Assembly (NCBI GenBank): GCA_001662655.1
Contig: KV460223.1
Direction: 5' to 3' (one strand)
Length of the DNA stretch: 64,000 bases
Source: Pseudogymnoascus verrucosus
Taxonomy: Eukaryota
The position numbers and the translations under genes are program-made. The notes under the pieces are model-generated. The model saw nothing but the letters and a program-made list of their open reading frames with translations. It made no database searches and had not been told where the DNA came from. Below are positions 4,912 through 15,361 of this stretch, one piece after another (positions within the stretch are counted from its first letter, which is position 1; each line of letters starts with the position of its first letter).

Positions 4912-5384
4912 CCTCTGACTGCTGGCTTATCGGGGATATACAACTGTCTTTCGTCCCTTTTGCTGTGAATTTGCGCGTGTCACTTGGTGCTGGTAGCTTA
5001 CGCTGACTCCATGGGCAGCGGTCGCGGAGTGTGGTTATCGGTGAATAAAGTTGGGTTGTGTTGATGTGCCAAGTAGTCGCCCCGGTAACCGAGCCAAAAA
5101 AGACCAGAGCCGCCATCTTTCTCGACGGTTTAACAAACACTGACTTATTTAAGGCGCGACTAGTTTTACATGATCTCACCATGCAGCTTTGAATGTTTAA
5201 GAAATACTCTAATATAGTGGCTGTGCATCTCTCTCTTTTTTTACAGTAGCTATATGTGTCTGCCGCTATATCGGGAAAGAGTCCGTGAGTCTGTGTGTGT
5301 CTTGTCTTGTCTCGTCTGTTCCGCAGTTATCCGCGGCCGAAACCGAAACATTTTAAATGTGGACTGAGTGATGGACGAACGAAC

Positions 5385-5415: not shown

Positions 5416-8400
5416 ACCTTGCTGGAAGGGGAGGCGGGCGGTGCAGTAGAGGTACAGCATCATGTGCTCTTTAGTACCGACAGACGCCTGATCCGCACTG
5501 GCAGTTGCTAGAGGATGTACGCTCATGCCAGTGATGCGTATCCGCGCATCTTACCGCTAAACTTCCCGCACCGTACCGTTGCAAGGGGAAAGCAAGTTAT
5601 ACCACAGCTACTGGTAAATCTGGTAGGAGCTACGGCTAGAGTACAGCTATAGTACAGCAATAGTACAGCCACACTACATCACGGCTACAGCTACAGCTTT
5701 ACAGCTTACAGACAGAGCCGCCGTCATCGCTCGGGATGTCTCGGCGGGGAATAATAACCTTGGTAATGTGTGCGTGCAGATGCAAGGCATACATTAGCAT
5801 TTGGAACAACAAGCGTTCAGCCAGGACGGGACGTCTGAGTTGGGGAGGTCGGGGAGGGAGGGGTGGTATGGTATGGGGGAGAAGGGGGAAGAGGAAGGGA
5901 GGGGGGTGGGAGTGGTTTGGTGGAAGGGTGGTCGGGGGGAGAGGGGGCGCGGAAGCGGGTGATGTTTCTGTGTGGTGCTGTATGTCTCTCATCGTCTGGG
6001 CCATGCATGCCTGTCTCCATGGCTCCATCTCGCACCGCAGCGCAGAGTAACAGAGCAAGCAGCGAAAGTATCCGGAGTACAGAGTTTTGAGGGAGAGCCT
6101 GTAAAGCCTGCCCTTGGAAGCGCAGGCTTTCAGTTCCTTGACACAGGGCTAGACTAGGTTGGGAAGGGGCAAGGTGGGGAGACAGAAGTGGGATTTGGGG
6201 CTAGGGTAGTTACGTGATGATCGGAAATGGCGGCGCAAGGAAAAGGAAAATCATGTCCCGCTGCAAGTAGCCGTCGCAAGCACAGAGGCTAGAGGAGTGT
6301 CCGTGGCAGGAACACAGCGATTTTTTTGTGGTTTTGTGGTTTTGTGGTTTTGTGCACGGTGTGGAGTATACATAGGACGCAGCATAGGACGGCATGTGCA
6401 TATTTTGTACATACAGACGAGAGCATAGTACAGACGTCTAGAGTAGAGATGATGTGCACTAATGCTGCTGTACAGAAGAGTCGAGACAGTTCAGACGAGA
6501 CGACTGGTCTCGGAGTGCATTTGCTGTAAAGAGCAGGTGGGAAGGTTTGGGGGAGGATCGGGATCAAGATCAAGATCAAGAACACACGATCTGGGGGCGT
6601 AGCTGAGTACTGGACTGGGTTAAGTCAAGGATTGGGTATGGGGAAAAGGTGAGTTGAGGAGTGTCTGATGGCCGATGGGCGGCCGGATAAGGGAGGACCG
6701 AAGTAACGAGGCTAGGAGGAGGAAGGAGCAAGGCAGAGTAGTTGAATTGCGACACGTATGAGCCGAGCACATGACAGGATAGGATAGGTAGAGAGAATAG
6801 TCAGTCTACTTAACAGGGCCAGTCAAAGTAAGTATAGGATAGAGTAGGATAGAGTAGAATATACATGTACTTTGGTATAGTAACTCATGGAAGTCGGCAG
6901 GGACAGAGAGACAGACAAGGCGAGACAAGGCAAGACAGAGAGACGAGAGAGAGGAGTGGAGAGTGGAGAGAGAGTGGAGAGGAGGAGAGAAAAGAGAGAC
7001 AGATAGGAACTGACAGACTGACAGACGACGATTGAGTGAGTGTGTATAAAAGGCACCCGTGTATAAATTGATGAGAGTAATCTGTAATACACATAGTACC
7101 ATCGTAGTACTCCTGAGAGAAAGTGTACAAGATGCATACATACAAACTCTAGGACTGTATTATACTGTGAGAGTTAGTAACTCTACGATGAGTATATTCA
7201 TATATTCCCCTCTATCTACTCTATTCCTCCCCCTCTCAACCTCCGTACTATGCAAAGTACCATGTATGTGCGTTGTGCGTTGTGCGCTGTGCGTTGTGCA
7301 TCTTCTATTAGTAGCTAGTTCCCGGAGTGCAGGTGCAGATGCCGCGCCGCGCAGCGCAGTGCAGTGCAGCCGTCCGTAGTCTGCCCGTAGAGCGATCCAA
7401 GCTTCTAGGGGACGCGCGCGATTTGATGGGAATGAAAAAGATGATGGATGGATGGGCGGACGGGGGGGTGGGCGGTAGGGGGGGTGGTAGGGTAGGGGGG
7501 GTGTGAGGTGTGTTGAGGTGACGAGGGGGAGGGATGAGGGGAACGAAGGGGAGTGGGTGTGGAAGTGACGGTGTGCGTTGTGCATGTATGTGTGTACTTA
7601 GTACTCTACTGTGGGGCGGGGGGTGGACGGAGGGACAGGGGGACATGGGTGGACGACGGGGGAAACGGGGGAAACGGGGGTTAGGGGAGAAGATGGGGGG
7701 GGCCGGGCGGCGGGTGGGGGAGCAGAGGAGGAACAGGATGAGAAGAGATAGAAAAGGCCAGCCACACAGCACATAGGACCACATAGGACCACAAATAACA
7801 GACCATCCAACGAGCACTAGAGAAAGTTGAGGGTTGAGGGTTGACGGAGGAGAGAGGAGTACTACTATAGGACTGGACTGGACTGACTAGATCACACACA
7901 CATCACCAGCTCACACACCCACCTCCCACCTCTCACCCACACACGCGCGAAGGGCCAGCGTATAGACGACCCAAAAAGAGTACGTACCCTACCTTGTGTG
8001 TGGTGTGTACTTATAATCGACCAATGACAGGCAACCACGTCTGTCCTGCCCGCTCCTCTCGGGGCCATCCTCAGTCTGGCTCTGTCTGGCTATGTCTGGC
8101 TCTGTCTGGCCTATCTGCCCTGTGTCTGGCTGGAAGGGAAAGTCTGATCTGTATGGAGTAAGAAACAAAAAAAAAATACAGTACTCAGTACTCCAGTACT
8201 CCCCTTCCGGTATATGGAGTCGGGGAGGGGGGGGGGAAGAAAAAGAGAAACGAGGAAACGAGGAGACGACTAAACGACTAAACGTGTACTATGATGGGCA
8301 TCTGGCCGGGTATCTATCTGTCAAACCCTGCCACGGAGCACACCAGGCCTGCCCTGCCTTTCTATTCCTTGCCTTCAATCGCACGACTCGTACGACTCGT

Positions 8401-11096
8401 CTGGTACGGTCCGAAGAGCGCGATAGATCATAGATGGGCTGGTACCTCCAAGTGCTTTGTGTTGTGTTGTGTTGTGTCGTGTTGTCTAGTTGACAGATAC
8501 AGATACAGATAGATGGACACAGATACAGCAGGCACGGAGATCTGTGCCTCGCAGTCACGTTCACACGCACACACACACACATACATACACACGTACACAT
8601 ACGCACACTCTCACACATACACTCAAAAACTAAACTGCCATACATCGTTCCCTTAGATTACCATAGTTTCTCTATCTACTCTGCCACTCTACCGCTCTAC
8701 TCTCCCTTACTCAGCTTCAGCCTCTCAGCCTCCCGCGCTTCGCTTCTCATGTTGGCACTCTCCTCTCCACTCCTCTGCCCTCCCATCCATCACCTCACCC
8801 TCCCCCCTCCCCTCACCTACCCGCTGCCTCCCCCAGCCCCTCCAATTGCCAATGGCCCCCCTTCGTTGGACGCCGATCGACCCCTTGTCAGTTTCTTATA
8901 GCCACGCCACACACACACAGCCGACCGCGACCGCGCCAAAGGTACTCACTCTACCCTACCAGCCTGTACCTGCTCGACTGCCAAAAGTACCGCGCTAAAA
9001 CTAAAAAGATACCCTGGCGCCAGTAAGTGTACTACCCATACTACCCTCTCCTCTGCCCCCCATCCCACTCTGCCCCAACCGCCAATCACGCACGGTCAGA
9101 CCCTCTATTCTCAACCATACCGGCGCTAAAAACAGAGCAGGGCATCTCGTCGTCAAAAGTACGATGAAGGGTACTCCGCCTACAACCGTCGGCTGTTCTC
9201 ACACCCCCCCCCAGCCAGCCAGCCCAGCTTCAACCTTCCCAACCCCCATCGAGTCTTCTCCGCCCACCACCAACACCACCAGTGCCAGCCATCATCTTCA
9301 TCCACCCACTCCCACTTACATTCCCACCACCACCACCAAATACTCACCACAAACACTCTACTATAATCTGCTCTTTCTGCCCTTTTACCCTTAACAACAC
9401 AACACAACACCACTAACTAACTCGCTTAGTCATCATCAAGGTAAACGAAACCCTTCGCTTCCCCCACCATCTAACCAATTGACACCATACAACCAACAAC
9501 ACGAACTGTGAACTGTAAAAAAGGACTCAAATTCTTATTCTTAATCCCACACCCCCCATCCCATCATATCCCTTCCCCTGCCCCTTCCAATCGTGGCTTG
9601 TGTAGGTGTAGAGTAGAGTATACATAGTATTCTACTTTTGTACTGTACTCTCTCTACCTACACCCTCCTACCCTAACTACTCTACTAACTCTAGTAACTT
9701 TACTAAAACTACTCTACCCTACCTCTGCTACTACTACCACTACTACCAACCTCCTCTCTCCTCGTCTCTTCCTCCTCCTCCCGCTCACCACCCCCCCCCC
9801 CCCCCCAAATCCCTACCAACCCACCCCCCCCACTCCTCTAATCCTCCCAAAACCCTGCCTAGGTCCTTGCACCTCTGATCCGCGTGCTGTACAGCACTCT
9901 TGCCGTAGCGAGGACAGCTCTACTCCCTCTCCACCTACCTCCACTCCCCGCCCAACCACTCACAATTCCCGAAATCTGCTGTCGCTAATGCTCCTCCTCC
10001 TCCCTGCTATGACCTGTATACTTACTAAGGTAAACCTCCACACCCCGATACTACATCCAACATCCACTTGCATTTGCATCTTCAACCTCTTCTTCAAAAC
10101 TCTTTCTTAACCTCCTCCTCTCCATAACCTCCTCCTCCCTCCCTCTACCCTCTTCCCCTTCCCCCCTCTCCCCGCGTCGTCTCCCTCCGTCGCCAAATCG
10201 AATTCTATTCCCCCATCGCTGTATCTATCTGGTGAGGTGTTGGCCCCGATCAGGTACGTCTTAGGCAAATCTCCATCTCGGCTGCTGTCGCCAATTCTCC
10301 TCGCGTCTTTGTCCTCCCAGTCTCACCCTCAAGACATACATTGCGCGTGCATTCGACGGCCGCTGACACTTTTTTTCTTATGTTAGAAAGTGGTGGAGGA
10401 CATTGTCATCTTCACACTTCAAATATTCTTCAAGGAGCTCTACGAGCCTCCAGGTGGTACTACTGCTACTACGCCGCTGCTACTACTGTTGCCGCTGCTT
10501 GGCTCTCTTACTACGTTCACGCCCAAACGACCTTAACGACCTTACGAGCTCTTCCTCGGCCACATAAACGCCTACGCGCCCCAGGACCCTCGCCGCCAAA
10601 ATATTCACGTCCCAGACTGCCTCAATTGGCAAGAGTACAGCAGCTTCCCTCTCCCCCCCCCAACGACTCTTAACGAACTCTACGATATACACGTTCTGCT
10701 CATTGAATATTCCCCCGCATTAACGAATACCAACTTGCGATATCCATCTTCTTTTACCCTGCAGCGAGCATAGAAGCATCATCACAACTCCCCCGCACGT
10801 TCCCACAAAAACTTTACCACATAGTTCTTTTCTGCAGCCTTCTTCCCCAAGTTGGCTCTAAGCTGTGCTCGTCCACTTCCTGCAAACGACGCCAAGTTTG
10901 TCACGTAAACATACCCTTCCCGCCTATACGCACTTTGCACCTGCGTTTTCAATCGCCAACGGATCGCGCGTCTCTTTACCTATATCAGGACCCAGCCCTA
11001 CCGAAAAGCTGGATCTCCCGTCTCTCTCCCACGCCTCAACCCGGGGACCGAGCAACATTCCGTCCTACAGCCTGCAGTCTTATCAGCGGCCGTCGC

Positions 11097-11237
11097 ATGT
11101 GAATGAGAGGTTGCCGTCGTTGCCATTGCCACAGCCGCAAGTGGCCTATTCGTCCAGTGCCTCATCCCCTCGGTTTGGCTCCATCTCGTCAGCATACACC
11201 AACAGTACCGCAGACACGTCGTACTCAGTTGAGTTAA
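11097..11237 (+). promoter_or_regulatory. Upstream ORFs in the stuA leader: start-stop ATG-TGA (11097-11102) immediately followed by a 44-codon uORF (11103-11237)
   Basis: Sequence reads gc ATG TGA ATG AGA GGT TGC ... AGT TAA. Both are out of frame with stuA, and the longer one ends 122 nt before the main AUG. Confidence 0.5.
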
Positions 11238-11359
11238 ACGGCGCGAAATCCCAATCTCCCACTCTGCCAGCTAGTGGAGGCCTCCAAACTCTGTCGCATC
11301 AGACACCAGCGAGCAATTCTGCCACTGGATATCAGTACAGCCCAGAGTCATACAACAAT

Positions 11360-13333
11360 ATGAACCAGGCGCCTCCTGATATGTATTACTCCACACATAT
11401 GTCGGCCGGACAGGCCCCAGCACCGCAGACCGTGACATCTGGTGGCCTGGGTCATTACCCACACCACCAGCAACCGCCGTCGCTTCAGCCCGTGCCGGGG
11501 CAGTACTCGGCCGCACCGGGCTCTTATGGACAGTATGGATATTCTAATGGCCTCACATCGCCTCAGCAATCGGGGCAGGTCTCGGGCTCTTTAGGGTCTC
11601 AACCGAATGTCCTGTCGCTGCCGTCATTAACTGCAGCGCAGCCAGTCATGCACGGGCAAGGATATCCTCAACAGCAGCAGCAACCGTTCGATTCGACGGG
11701 CCAAATCGCGCCTCCTGGCATGAAACCCAGGGTGACGGCGACGCTTTGGGAGGATGAAGGGAGTCTCTGCTTCCAGGTAGAGGCCAAGGGCATCTGTGTT
11801 GCGAGGAGAGAAGATAACCATATGATTAACGGAACCAAGCTGTTGAACGTCGCGGGCATGACTCGAGGACGCCGAGATGGCATATTAAAAAGTGAGAAGA
11901 TGAGACACGTGGTCAAGATTGGGCCGATGCACCTCAAGGGCGTCTGGATACCGTTTGAACGCGCTCTGGACTTCGCCAACAAGGAGAAGATCACGGAGCT
12001 GCTGTACCCCCTCTTTGTCCACAACATCGGCGCGCTCCTCTACCACCCGTCAAACCAGACGAGGTCGCACAGTGTCATGGCTGCGGCTGAGCGCCGAAAG
12101 CAGGAGCAAAACCAGATGCGAAACCCGCAAGCTCCCAACCTGCCTTCCATGCAGTCACATCATCACCACTCGATGCATAACTCTGGAGGTGGCTCGTTGC
12201 CAGGCCCGCAGCACTCCGTATCGGGGCACCAGGGGATTGGTGGCCGCCCAGACATCCAGCGCTCGCATACGTTTCCGACCCCCCCAACCAGCGCCTCGAG
12301 CGTGATGGGAAACATGGGGACTTCTGATGGCTCGTTCCAATGGGGTGGACAGAACCTAAATGGTGTTCAAGGGTCCAACCCGCTCGCGATTGATACTGGG
12401 CTGAGTAACGCCCGGTCGATGCCTACAACTCCTGCTACTACACCACCGGGAACCTCCATTCAAAACATGCAACAGTACCAGCAAACAACGCAATCATACG
12501 ACACGTCTAGACAGCAAATGTACTCTGCGCCGCCTCTGCAACAGAGTGCGTATCCTCAACCGAATGGCGCTCAGACGAACATGGGCCGGTACAATCAGAC
12601 TGGTGCATACATAAAGAATGAGATGGGCCCTCCTTCAGGGCGCGCGGCAGGGTCCGTGTCGGATGGCGAGCACCACGATACCAAACTCCCCAACGGTCTC
12701 ATCCACCACAGCCAAGGCAATGATCAAGTGAGCCATTCTCAGCCAGAAGAGGAGGCAGAACACGATGGGGACTATGCCCATGATAACGCCGCCGCCTACG
12801 ATGCGAACCGTGGTTCGTACAACTACGCGCCTGGTCCTCCAGTCGGTTCCATCACAGGCGAGCACGCCCATATCTCCCCCGAGTTGACAGGCTCGCCGAA
12901 CCACAACGGCGGATCTGGCCATGTAACACCGCGCACCGCCACGACCTCACAGGCCTACTATTCCCAACACCAGGGCGGATATAGCACTCCTCCACGAGCC
13001 CAACCACCGTCGAGTAATCTGTATAATGTAATGAGCAGCGAACGAGGCACCGCCAATGGAAGCTCAACTAATGAAATGTACGGCAACCAGTCAGACTTGG
13101 GTAATCCATTAACAAACGGATTTGCAGGCCAGCCCCTTACCAACGGCGCCACGCCGAGCAGTAAGAGGAGCCGCGATGACGATGACGATCAACGGCCCTC
13201 AAGCCGCGATGCAGGAGGAGAGACCGATGGCTTGAAGAGGAGGAGAACAATCCGCGAAGACTCGGCGCCTAATCTCAACTACGACGCGCCCCTCAACCGC
13301 GCTCGCGCGACCATCTCCCAGCGCCGACGATGA
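11360..13333 (+). CDS. stuA: APSES transcription factor StuA/Asm-1 (cell pattern formation protein); first in-frame AUG at 11360, frame open from 10862
   Basis: APSES/KilA-N domain RVTATLWEDEGSLCFQVEAKGICVARREDNHMINGTKLLNVAGMTRGRRDGILKSEK...HLKGVWIPFERALDFANKEKITELLYPLF. Also RSHTFPTPPTSASS, SNARSMPTTPATTPPG and C-terminal LKRRR. No intron is needed. Confidence 0.97.
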   Translation: MNQAPPDMYYSTHMSAGQAPAPQTVTSGGLGHYPHHQQPPSLQPVPGQYSAAPGSYGQYGYSNGLTSPQQSGQVSGSLGSQPNVLSLPSLTAAQPVMHGQGYPQQQQQPFDSTGQIAPPGMKPRVTATLWEDEGSLCFQVEAKGICVARREDNHMINGTKLLNVAGMTRGRRDGILKSEKMRHVVKIGPMHLKGVWIPFERALDFANKEKITELLYPLFVHNIGALLYHPSNQTRSHSVMAAAERRKQEQNQMRNPQAPNLPSMQSHHHHSMHNSGGGSLPGPQHSVSGHQGIGGRPDIQRSHTFPTPPTSASSVMGNMGTSDGSFQWGGQNLNGVQGSNPLAIDTGLSNARSMPTTPATTPPGTSIQNMQQYQQTTQSYDTSRQQMYSAPPLQQSAYPQPNGAQTNMGRYNQTGAYIKNEMGPPSGRAAGSVSDGEHHDTKLPNGLIHHSQGNDQVSHSQPEEEAEHDGDYAHDNAAAYDANRGSYNYAPGPPVGSITGEHAHISPELTGSPNHNGGSGHVTPRTATTSQAYYSQHQGGYSTPPRAQPPSSNLYNVMSSERGTANGSSTNEMYGNQSDLGNPLTNGFAGQPLTNGATPSSKRSRDDDDDQRPSSRDAGGETDGLKRRRTIREDSAPNLNYDAPLNRARATISQRRR

Positions 13334-15361
13334 TGCAATCAAATGAATGACTTGACGCAGCAGTCCTTCCGTACTATAGACGTTGGCGATTTTTACCCCC
13401 ATTTTTTTTACTCTTTGGCATAGCAACGGCATCTCAGCACCCCTCTCCACCACCAAAAAAATACACCTAAAAAACCTCTTTAACGAACGCCCTGATGGCA
13501 AGAAACAGTTGGCCAAAAAGACCACTGTTCTTCGCGCCTTATCAATGACACGAAAACTACACTCATTCGAACAATCTTTTTCCTTGGGACGTCTTTAACG
13601 AAAGTGTGCCTTCGACCTTTTTTACCTCCCCTTTGGTGTGTTTTGCCCCTGCTCACGAAAGGGGGGCATGCATACGCACCACACACACACACACGCACAC
13701 GAAATACACACTGATACCGAACCCTATTTTTTTAACGTTTTTGCCCCAAGTTAACGAACGAAACACACACACACACACGCCGACCCTTTTTAACGACTAC
13801 TGAAATTTTTGAGATGGGAAACATGAAATGAAAAAATGGACGCACGCCCCTCTCCCCTCCCTCCCAAACGAAGAGAAAGGGAGGGAGGCAAGGAGGGGGG
13901 AAATATCTTTATTTTCATGATCTGGGGCTTTTTTTTTGACAGATTATACAATGCGGTGCTTGCTCGGCTCGGGAAATGGGAAATGGGATATGGGATATGG
14001 GATGGGACGGCTGTCCCTGCGTCTTTGATGAAACCAGGCGTCGTGGACGGAGTTCATTCCCCCCTCTCCCCCAAGTCCCCCATTACTACTCTAGCCTCCG
14101 GTGCTATGAGAGAAGTTTTTTTTATGATGACCATGATGACACTATCTTGCTTTTTATGTTTTTTGCTTTTTGGAATTCTAACTTTTAAATGGGGGCTTCT
14201 TTTTTTATGTTGGTTGTTGATGCGTTTTTGCGCTTGGTTGATAGAGTAGCCCGTCGTTTCGCGTTTTTGTGGAACGATGTGATGAGCGGACAATCAAAAG
14301 CTTTTTTGTGTTGAAAACATGTGTGCGTTTGATGAAGTTGTGCGTGATGTGATGTGAGATCTCTGATGTTGTGCCTAGACGTCCTTTGCCCATGCTTGAC
14401 GTCAGGCGGAGGGGACAGGCATCGATGTGAGAACCAGATTGAACTTTGACAACAAGTTATCCTTTTAATTCCCTCCTGTTGCGGTGTTGATAGTTTGCAC
14501 GCCGCAGTTGCGAGGTAAATGGAACGAACCTCCCCAGGAAGCTTAGCTAAAGCTTATATCTCTGACACCTATGGGGAAGGTCAGACATGCACCGTTCTAC
14601 ATCGATTGCCCCCAGAAGAAATCTCACAGCAGGACGGATCGGGGATATAAGCGCTGTCATACTGCCATGACTACATCATCTGCCAACATCCCCGTCAACA
14701 CGGAGACTATCTAGCCAGACACCGAAAATGAGAATACCATGAGTGTCCGCATTGACAAAGTTAGAAGATAAAAGTTAAAACCTAAACCTATTCCACTACA
14801 CCAATAACCCATCCTAGCACCTATCAACACATCCAAAGCTTAATCACCACAGTATAACCCCCCCCCAATCCAATCCCCAAATAAAATTCATGTTTTCCCC
14901 AAATCATACAGATATGACAGTGTTTCGGTTGGTCGTCGGGTAAAAGGAACAACCCCAGATCACGTGCACCTCTATGCGGTAATCCAGCCGGGTCTCAGGA
15001 CGTACCTTGTACTATAAAAGATGGCACATTTGTGCATCCCGAGCTTCGAGGCGGGGAAGTGTTTCCAAGCTTCATTCAGCGTATCGATCATTTTATTTCT
15101 ACGAGGTTTATGATATTATACGGATTATTTGGCATTGAAGCGTGTGAGAGAGAATACTGAGAGCTTTGAAGGTAGGTTTGTGGGGTTATCCGTCGGTGCT
15201 TGGTTGGGCGTATGGTTCTTTGTGTTGCCAATTCGGCGATGTTGAGAAGGGGAGAGAGAGAGAGATCTAGCAGCAGCTCAGTCTGGCATTGCATTTACAT
15301 CATAAATGGCATCAAACACTCACTAACACCTCACCAGATTACCACCCAACCACCACCAACA

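Follow-up and report, generated by a model that had tools for sequence, protein, structure and literature searches.

A conserved AUG-less N-terminal extension of StuA and its candidate CUG start codon

Development, secondary metabolism and virulence are all under the control of StuA (Asm-1), a master regulator that has been investigated in dozens of filamentous fungi. In the stretch of DNA analysed here (the window, 64,000 nt of contig KV460223.1 from Pseudogymnoascus verrucosus), the stuA frame continues well upstream of the AUG at which standard gene models begin, raising the question of whether the gene also encodes a longer protein started at some other codon, and if so where that protein begins. 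An earlier note on this DNA had proposed a non-AUG-initiated extension of 166 codons. From comparison with orthologous sequences we consider it likely, and the best reading of the locus, that a long StuA isoform is initiated at a CUG beside the AUG form, and that this arrangement is widespread in Pezizomycotina.

The stuA gene and the extent of its open frame

By domain and by full-length similarity the window protein belongs to the APSES transcription factors (StuA/Asm-1/Efg1/Phd1/Sok2). Pfam family PF04383 is found at residues 312-389 of P0001 (E 7.6e-9, 35.8 bits vs. a cut-off of 23.8), and 1075 proteins match at E <= 1e-20, including some named 'cell pattern formation-associated protein stuA' and 'ascospore maturation 1 protein (Asm-1)'; the nearest named protein among the matches listed is from Pseudogymnoascus sp., at 83% identity. 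The features discussed below are collected in Table 1.

Table 1. Features of the stuA locus in window coordinates
Feature	Position	Strand	Remarks
Candidate 5'-UTR intron (GTACGT ... CTGAC ... TAG)	10254..10386	+	predicted only; encloses ATG 10380
ATG-free C-rich 5' leader	10387..10999	+	includes chance-open 10862-10999
Conserved initiation context ACCGAAAAG	11000..11008	+	A at -3; conservation profile
Proposed CUG start of long StuA isoform	11009..11011	+	G at +4; conserved in orthologues
N-terminal extension, 117 codons, S/P-rich	11009..11359	+	open frame, purifying selection, conserved motifs
Out-of-frame (+1) AUG-UGA 'start-stop'	11097..11102	+	88 nt after CUG
In-frame GTG	11099..11101	+	aligns with in-frame ATG in some relatives
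Second +1-frame AUG, 44-codon ORF	11103..11237	+	ends before main AUG
AUG-initiated StuA/Asm-1 CDS	11360..13333	+	657 aa + stop, intronless here, APSES/KilA-N domain

Preceded by a TAA at 10859-10861, the stuA frame stays open from 10862 until the stop at 13331-13333; its first in-frame ATG is that at 11360. As the earlier note had it, the frame encodes the motifs TEKLDLPSLS and ERLPSLPLP and holds a CTG at 11009 in a strong context (gaaaagCTGgat) as well as ACG codons at 10886 and 10889; the acceptor-like string 'atatcag', which it placed one base further on, ends at 10988 and not at 10989.

Nucleotide similarity to orthologues begins at 11000 in five of seven comparisons and at 10984-10985 in the other two. 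Three close relatives from the window's own clade, found in three runs of three studies, carry a 1-nt deletion at 10996 that shifts the frame, and orthologues have in-frame stops in this part. At least 49 stop-free codons precede the CTG in 17% of dinucleotide-shuffled leaders, so the open stretch upstream of the CTG is unremarkable. Codons 1-46 of the frame (10862-10999) belong to leader that is open by chance. What survives of the proposed extension is thus the CUG, its strong context and the conserved linear motifs, all backed by comparative evidence, with a length of 117 codons (11009-11359) in place of 166; the two ACG codons, suggested as further possible starts, both lie within the non-conserved part. 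The 117 codons remain open in 4.5% of dinucleotide shuffles, a figure that is only suggestive, and it is the comparative data that decide.

Conservation of the extension and of the CUG codon

The loci compared at the DNA level are those reachable by Leotiomycete- and Sordariomycete-like peptide patterns, whereas Eurotiomycetes and Dothideomycetes contribute evidence at the protein level only. A stop-free frame with dN/dS below 1, the check that the earlier note proposed, is what was found: the extension is open in all 61 orthologous loci that hold both of its ends, its length ranges over 105-131 codons and changes by whole codons only, and its median dN/dS of 0.141 (388 pairs) indicates purifying selection. 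Differences by codon position (0.279, 0.194 and 0.549) have three-base periodicity, and the four substitutions listed against relative X17 inside the extension are all third-position and synonymous. Comparison establishes coding-type conservation here, although the window's extension has diverged further than most others (pN 0.26-0.30 vs. other loci).

Conserved motifs of the extension, LDLPS(I/L)S..TRGP, ERLPSLPLP, SSPR and K.(Q/T)SP, are kept at the amino-acid level across five classes. Among the database matches listed, 44 of 120 proteins have 180 or more residues ahead of the APSES motif; these and the window share TEK-L(D/E/A)-LPSISQV.TRGP ... ERLPSLPLP ... SSPR, with nothing alignable upstream of TEK, and conservation starts at the same place in protein models from Aspergillus, Penicillium, Phyllosticta and Phylliscum. 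The Aspergillus models with TEK-LELPSISQVHTRGP are only automatic or 'partial' annotations, and several NCBI models (P0006, P0055, P0060, P0064, P0065, P0152 and P0153) are flagged 'partial' and lack a Met. A regulatory or interaction role is probable for the extension, with its S/T-P sites as possible targets of phosphorylation; the co-repressor binding raised in the earlier note is a hypothetical one. A Pfam search returned no family within it, and an AlphaFold2 model of the extension with APSES (39-row alignment, mean pLDDT 41) was poor even in the APSES domain and is therefore uninformative on order or docking.

Conservation sets in sharply at ACCGAAAAG-CTG-GAT. Of 66 sequences examined (65 metagenome loci and the window), 62 have the site in frame, and all 62 show the CTG, the A at -3 and the G at +4; 47 of them share an identical 15-mer spanning CTGGAT, from which the remaining 15 deviate by between one and three bases. 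In 59 of the 62 the frame is closed by a stop 3-71 codons upstream of the CTG, the other three reaching the contig end, and in none of the 62 does an in-frame ATG intervene between the nearest upstream stop and the CTG, leaving no usable upstream AUG. Five loci have the stop only 3 codons upstream, and TAA abuts ACCGAAAAGCTG in L021, L034, L004, L023 and L038, two of which (L023 and L034) are mRNA-like contigs. Upstream of ACC neither sequence nor spacing is conserved; many orthologues do have CAG directly before ACC (QTEKLD). A single codon that never varies, an abrupt onset of conservation and stops directly upstream make this an unusually clean case of a candidate near-cognate start. Because the conserved AUG-less segment most likely begins at the invariant CUG, the usual StuA gene models are probably too short by this 117-codon N-terminal segment.

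Individual sequences vary around the site. The Apiospora hydei model P0088 begins with M exactly at the CUG (Leu) position, which favours a start there, and in a single metagenome contig, L051, the AAGCTGGA motif is out of frame with the downstream match. In annotated models from A. wentii, A. udagawae, Squamulea and others, in-frame ATGs that are not conserved occur a few codons further upstream, and an AUG could therefore serve as the start in these species. We found no conserved CUG-boosting hairpin downstream: RNAalifold on 36 sequences gave a 3-pair invariant stem with no covariation, and 114 nt of the window fold no better than shuffles (z +1.03).

Leader structure and alternative explanations

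No ATG occurs in any frame between 10381 and 11096; when 10387-11008 was shuffled, the mean was 4.3 ATGs and only 0.45% of shuffles had none. Orthologous leaders are likewise ATG-poor, with 60 ATG vs. 110-238 of the other A/T/G permutations (400 nt upstream, summed over 47 loci). In 11 mRNA-like contigs the leaders run to 369-1445 nt and hold 0-3 short uORFs each. Setting mRNA-like L026 against genomic L014 points to a leader intron comparable to the one predicted in the window (124 nt, GTATGT...TTAG, about 750 nt upstream of the CTG). The region upstream of the gene is large, the nearest ORFs of at least 120 codons ending at 5182 and 7784. For the window itself, four runs (two of them RNA only by guess) yielded short contigs with no GT..AG joint and no transcript ends, uncovered parts and the lack of joints being uninformative either way. 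The one joint listed, 10789>10861, with CC..TA ends (side 28) in one metatranscriptome contig, looks like a relative's deletion.

The mRNA contig L003 corresponds to genomic L006 after splicing: the two are 99.8% identical, and L003 lacks two 52-nt CDS introns. Over 525 nt upstream and through the CTG, the L003 leader follows the genomic sequence without a break, with an in-frame stop 8 codons before the CTG. This collinearity argues against a spliced-in AUG exon and shows, for this orthologue, that the mature mRNA retains the CUG with its genomic upstream sequence; 10 further mRNA-like contigs suggest the same.

We think it unlikely that the extension, though coding and conserved, has a CUG that is little or never used here, with long forms made from GUG 11099, an AUG in close relatives, or absent, and the AUG 11360 product being the functional one. 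Where the window has that GTG, 4 of 43 distinct loci have an ATG in frame, as do the ORF-called P0003 and P0004, which start there, and many Sordariomycete gene models begin at a Met aligned with it; moreover near-cognate initiation is usually inefficient, and the window's extension is relatively diverged. However, conservation runs 30 codons upstream of GTG 11099 in all lineages, the ATG-bearing ones included. The codon at that place is frequently GCN or ACC, neither of them start-like, and has T or C at -3. Little use of the CUG would also leave the synonymous-site invariance of its context unexplained.

Very unlikely, in our view, is the earlier note's own alternative, that splicing joins a distant AUG exon to the extension in frame, by which the long form would be AUG-started. 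One such route would run from ATG 9988 or 10009 through a donor AAG/GTAAAC at 10030 to the cag at 10986-10988. The sequence does offer the acceptor-like string and a phase-0 donor candidate, and the CAG that precedes ACC in many orthologues fits an acceptor there. But the deletion at 10996 in the three relatives falls between that acceptor and the CTG and would break the frame, the L003 leader is genomic across its in-frame stop, TAA directly precedes ACCGAAAAGCTG in mRNA-like L023 and L034, and upstream of ACC neither spacing nor sequence is conserved.

That all 166 codons (10862-11359) are translated, from ACG 10886 or 10889 or another upstream near-cognate, is barely credible: the frame is open and such codons are present, but nothing upstream of 11000 is conserved, the relatives are frameshifted, and orthologue stops and shuffles alike bespeak a stretch open by chance. 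Finally, we give practically no credence to the whole frame being a chance feature of a non-coding leader, C-rich and stop-poor as that leader is and despite the shuffles in which the 117 codons stay open, given the low dN/dS, the periodicity, the whole-codon indels, the frame open in every locus and the motifs shared by five classes.

A model for two StuA proteins and its relation to known systems

If the CUG is used beside the AUG, as we favour, the stuA mRNA would give rise to two nested proteins. Scanning ribosomes would traverse the long, nearly AUG-free leader, and a fraction would start at CUG 11009 in its invariant optimal context (ACCGAAAAG CUG G), making a 774-residue StuA whose 117 additional N-terminal residues form the conserved S/P-rich segment with its short linear motifs. 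Those passing the CUG would encounter two weak out-of-frame AUGs, the AUG-UGA at 11097 and then the 44-codon ORF from 11103, and would thereafter reach the in-frame AUG 11360 and make the 657-residue StuA of standard models. The actual use of the CUG, the ratio of long to short StuA and the role of the extension are the inferred parts of this model.

A +1-frame ATG is present at the AUG-UGA spot in 34 of 43 distinct sequences, 25 of which have the start-stop itself (TAT-GTG-A), and equivalents of the 11103 ORF in orthologous loci have 24-36 codons. The AUGUAA of plant NIP5;1 is a minimal AUG-stop ('start-stop') leader element. Like that type, the window has an AUG immediately followed by a stop in the scanning path, conserved at synonymous sites; unlike it, this start-stop lies within the coding region of the extension, downstream of the proposed CUG, and its functional role is putative. 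A tentative further reading, to which we give rather low weight, is that StuA's ancestral and main proteoform across Pezizomycotina is the one begun at the CUG, with the conserved AUG-stop and +1 ORF about 88-94 nt past the CUG gating ribosomes that skip it and perhaps also queueing ribosomes back to it. Were the CUG form principal, the long/short ratio would respond to start-codon stringency or eIF2 status, linking development to translational state, and AUG-based StuA constructs and N-terminal tags would have tested a truncated protein.

More generally, reference StuA models start at the AUG, and if the CUG-made region of 105-131 residues is real, annotated protein lengths would need re-reading, as would deletion-complementation constructs, tagged alleles and interaction screens on StuA. 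The long-known translational control of stuA would then gain a mechanism, a choice between CUG and AUG starts with small out-of-frame ORFs between them.

A literature search, whose slight coverage of subscription journals means that its outcome is not proof of novelty, returned no paper that connects non-AUG initiation or an N-terminal extension with StuA, Asm-1 or APSES factors. A preprint on Histoplasma isoforms describes long Stu1 leaders and, in its accessible portion, mentions no CUG start. Aspergillus nidulans stuA has two transcripts, a large 5' UTR, a small uORF with translational control and a very large upstream intergenic region (PMC3730340); the window shares with it the gene family, the large upstream region, a C-rich tract, a long leader and small upstream ORFs, and the excerpted description has translation from the AUG, with no mention of a CUG-initiated extension (PMC3730340).

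Among the closest parallels is Neurospora crassa cpc-1, in which conserved near-cognate codons initiate N-terminal extensions (Ivanov et al. 2017, mBio, PMC5487733). Like cpc-1, stuA is a Pezizomycotina transcription factor gene with a long leader and an AUG-less in-frame extension, of about 120-180 residues in the two; both have conserved near-cognates flanked by A at -3 and G at +4, and in both the annotations disagree on the start. They differ in that cpc-1 has several candidate near-cognates (ACG, AUU and CUG), conserved in 74-98 of 100 species (PMC5487733), whereas stuA has one CUG, invariant in every sequence with the site; in that the cpc-1 extension bypasses an inhibitory uORF, whereas in stuA conservation begins sharply at the CUG, which precedes the out-of-frame AUGs; and in that near-cognate use in cpc-1 was demonstrated in vitro and in vivo (PMC5487733), whereas CUG use in stuA is proposed from sequence comparison. 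The same source, in the part seen, cites a proposed CUG start, conserved in Neurospora, for the Podospora anserina bZIP factor IDI-4, which like StuA is a fungal transcription factor, of a different protein family.

Extent and conservation of the open frame

A single long plus-strand ORF, preceded by a TAA (10859-10861), runs from 10862 to a stop at 13331-13333; the earliest ATG in the stuA frame is at 11360, and the 166 codons before it (10862-11359) lack an ATG, as the earlier note had correctly stated in proposing a 5' extension of StuA. These codons contain the motifs quoted there, ACG at both 10886 and 10889, and the CTG at 11009 (gaaaagCTGgat); the acceptor-like 'atatcag' is also present, but ends at 10988 rather than 10989. 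Translated from 11360, the frame gives a StuA/Asm-1 orthologue with a Pfam KilA-N/APSES domain (E 7.6e-9). A protein database search retrieved 1075 relatives at E <= 1e-20, the closest named one among the matches listed (83% identity) being from Pseudogymnoascus sp., a Leotiomycete of the order Thelebolales. The window CDS (11360-13333) is intronless and related loci have two ~52 nt introns in the APSES region (1915-1966 and 2102-2153 in metagenome locus L006), which looks like intron loss in the window's lineage.

Protein searches used either residues 1-166 of the frame only or the whole 823-residue frame. The former retrieved two close relatives, P0003 and P0004 (745 aa), that begin with MNERLPSLPLPQ where the window has HVNERLPSLPLPQ; thus the window's in-frame GTG at 11099 aligns with their ATG. 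With the whole frame, 44 of the 120 database proteins listed had at least 180 residues before the APSES motif. The block common to these long models and the window opens (T/V)(E/V)K-L-(D/E/A)-LPSISQV.TRGP and runs on via ERLPSLPLP, SSGTSSPRV and NGPKTPSP until it meets the canonical MN(Q/H)...MYY start; no alignable sequence precedes 'TEK'. A profile of this block (A1) gave 79 matches among longer proteins, and we examined N-termini for 34 of these, scoring the edge by script pattern and then by eye. The edge between TEK and L(E/D/A)LPSISQVHTRGP was recognized in 30 by pattern and in three more by eye; in one (P0172) it was not seen within the first 120 residues. It is present in Aspergillus, Penicillium, Phyllosticta (Dothideomycetes), Phylliscum (Lichinomycetes) and lichen-fungus models. 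Several NCBI models (P0006, P0055, P0060, P0064, P0065, P0152 and P0153) are flagged 'partial', with a Met-less start inside or before the block, indicating that automatic annotation of other species ran into this AUG-less frame as well. The Apiospora hydei protein P0088 starts MDLPPIS, its Met falling exactly on the Leu of KLD.

Coding signature and its upstream limit

Searching A1 against metagenome contigs yielded 65 loci, 66 sequences with the window; the search went via two peptides, and this DNA-level evidence is biased toward lineages matching them. The frame from CTG to canonical ATG was open in all 61 loci containing both ends (46 distinct sequences; extension 105-131 codons). Mean pairwise differences at codon positions 1, 2 and 3 were 0.279, 0.194 and 0.549 (107 well-occupied codon columns), and median dN/dS was 0.141 (range 0.038-0.405; 388 pairs with dS 0.1-1.5). 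Together, open frame, codon-position differences and dN/dS rule out a non-coding leader for 11009-11359, where the stop-free frame and dN/dS below 1 that the earlier note had looked to among orthologues were both obtained; at the sequence level, conservation of the extension is thereby demonstrated. The extension is S/P-rich with S/T-P sites and matches no Pfam family; our guess would be that it serves regulation or partner binding.

Contigs from four public runs were aligned to window 8000-14000. Three relatives from three studies (contigs X15, X17 and X18) share a 1-nt deletion at 10996, where a CCC run immediately precedes ACC, so that the 166-codon frame is broken upstream of ~10999 even in near-identical genomes. 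X15 differs over 10876-11281 by one mismatch and that single gap. Each of the four X17 substitutions listed inside the extension (11155, 11290, 11296, 11305) is a silent third-position change. When seven orthologous loci were compared with the window at the nucleotide level, similarity began at 11000 in five and at 10984-10985 in two, with an extra similar leader block in L001 (window 10671-10780), and at least 49 open codons upstream of the CTG occurred in 17% of leader dinucleotide shuffles. The deletion, the similarity edge and the shuffle rate thus mark 10862-10999 as a leader open by chance; of the extension proposed earlier, 11009-11359 stands as conserved and coding, whereas the upstream part, frameshifted in relatives, does not. 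Both ACG codons lie in this chance-open leader and are unsupported as starts.

The CTG and its leader

The site is in frame with downstream StuA in 62 of the 66 sequences. It was absent from three (L049, L050, L065), and in L051, a single metagenome contig, the AAGCTGGA motif (~987-1057) lies in another frame than the StuA match, which may reflect a true frameshift or misassembly. Each of the 62 has CTG as its Leu codon, flanked by A at -3 and G at +4; the 15-mer ACCGAAAAGCTGGAT is identical in 47, the other 15 having 1-3 base differences upstream of the CTG. An in-frame stop occurs 3-71 codons upstream in 59 of the 62, the remaining three being open to the contig end, and no in-frame ATG lies between nearest upstream stop and CTG in any. 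Where TAA stands immediately before ACC GAA AAG CTG (L004, L021, L023, L034, L038), the in-frame start options are only ACC, GAA/GAT, AAG, ACG/AAA and CTG; CTG is the sole efficient near-cognate codon that these five loci share. Conservation is low and flat (30-60%) upstream, near-invariant over the 15-mer including synonymous positions, and then shows three-base periodicity.

At window 11045-11052 (ACCCGGGG) the T-R-G codons ACC CGG GG are near-invariant at synonymous positions in the 36 sequences of alignment A2 (columns ~46-56), the Arg codon being CGG in all 36. No covarying pairing partner for ACC CGG GG and no conserved RNA structure were found.

An AUG exon spliced in just ahead of the conserved block, the alternative raised earlier, is unsupported by the orthologous loci compared. 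L003 (3380 nt) matches genomic L006 at 99.8% identity but without the two 52-nt APSES-region introns, marking it as a spliced mRNA. Over its first 1354 nt, 525 nt of them upstream of the CTG, it follows the genomic sequence collinearly, and its CTG is preceded by an in-frame stop at a distance of 8 codons. L026, compared with L014 (85% identity), reveals a single leader intron (GTATGT...TTAG), located ~750 nt before the CTG, and is collinear thereafter. In eleven mRNA-like contigs, whose ORF from the CTG spans 723-790 codons, the leader is 369-1445 nt long and carries 0-3 upstream ATGs, all in short ORFs (2-58 codons) closing before the CTG. Five mRNA-like contigs (L003, L018, L023, L026 and L034) have a tiny uORF (5-9 codons, context c/tTATGc) at a similar distance from the CTG, ~303-329 nt upstream; the window lacks an ATG there.

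No ATG occurs in any frame at window 10381-11096; shuffles of 10387-11008 averaged 4.3 ATGs, with only 0.45% ATG-free. Summed over 47 distinct loci, the last 400 nt before the CTG held 60 ATGs vs. 110-238 for each of the five other A/T/G permutations, a depletion weaker at -1200 to -800 (41 vs. 57-71, n = 24).

Predicted initiation and precedents

Ribosomes would scan the AUG-poor stuA leader, some initiating at CUG 11009 in its optimal context to give a 774-residue StuA, while those passing it would traverse two weak out-of-frame AUGs (table) and reach AUG 11360, giving a 657-residue form. We infer CUG use, the isoform ratio and a role for the AUG-stop.

Minor sequence features in and around the window's stuA
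Feature	Position	Frame	Basis
In-phase ATGs opening a 40/33-codon ORF	9988, 10009 (within 9988-10110)
GTAAAC donor-like site	10030
ATG-TGA start-stop	11097, 88 nt past CUG	+1	window sequence
Second ATG, directly after ATG-TGA	11103, 44-codon ORF to 11237	+1	window sequence
(CA)n/(AC)n microsatellite runs, 3' UTR region; small indels among relatives	13680-13790

A +1-frame ATG occupies the same spot in 34 of 43 distinct orthologous sequences (a start-stop in 25), with an in-frame ATG instead in four and none in five; L026 went unscored when the script motif failed. Most of these ATGs come from Tyr TAT plus G, against overall Tyr usage in these genes of TAC 384 vs. TAT 262, and we read the TAT preference at this spot as a nucleotide-level constraint. 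The string (T/C)ATGTGAATGA, conserved at window 11097-11108 and equivalents in L002-L048, gives an out-of-frame AUG-UGA and then a second AUG, and needs the synonymous choices TAT and AAT.

The nearest precedent is cpc-1 of N. crassa: PMC5487733 describes an N-terminal extension initiated at conserved near-cognate codons that have A at -3 and G at +4, and demonstrates their use in vitro and in vivo. Its main text makes no mention of StuA, APSES or NCU01414. In the literature searched, whose coverage is incomplete and leaves primary stuA papers outside, no account of StuA starting at a non-AUG codon was found. According to PMC3730340, A. nidulans stuA gives rise to two transcripts and has a large 5' UTR, a small regulatory uORF and, upstream, a very large region; the layout of stuA in the window matches this published picture. 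The plus strand at 8600-10800 is strongly C-rich and G-poor (GC skew to -0.75; poly-C at ~9791-9831), and unrelated contigs pile up on it; this stretch agrees with the polypyrimidine tracts that the same account (PMC3730340) describes ahead of stuA in Aspergilli.
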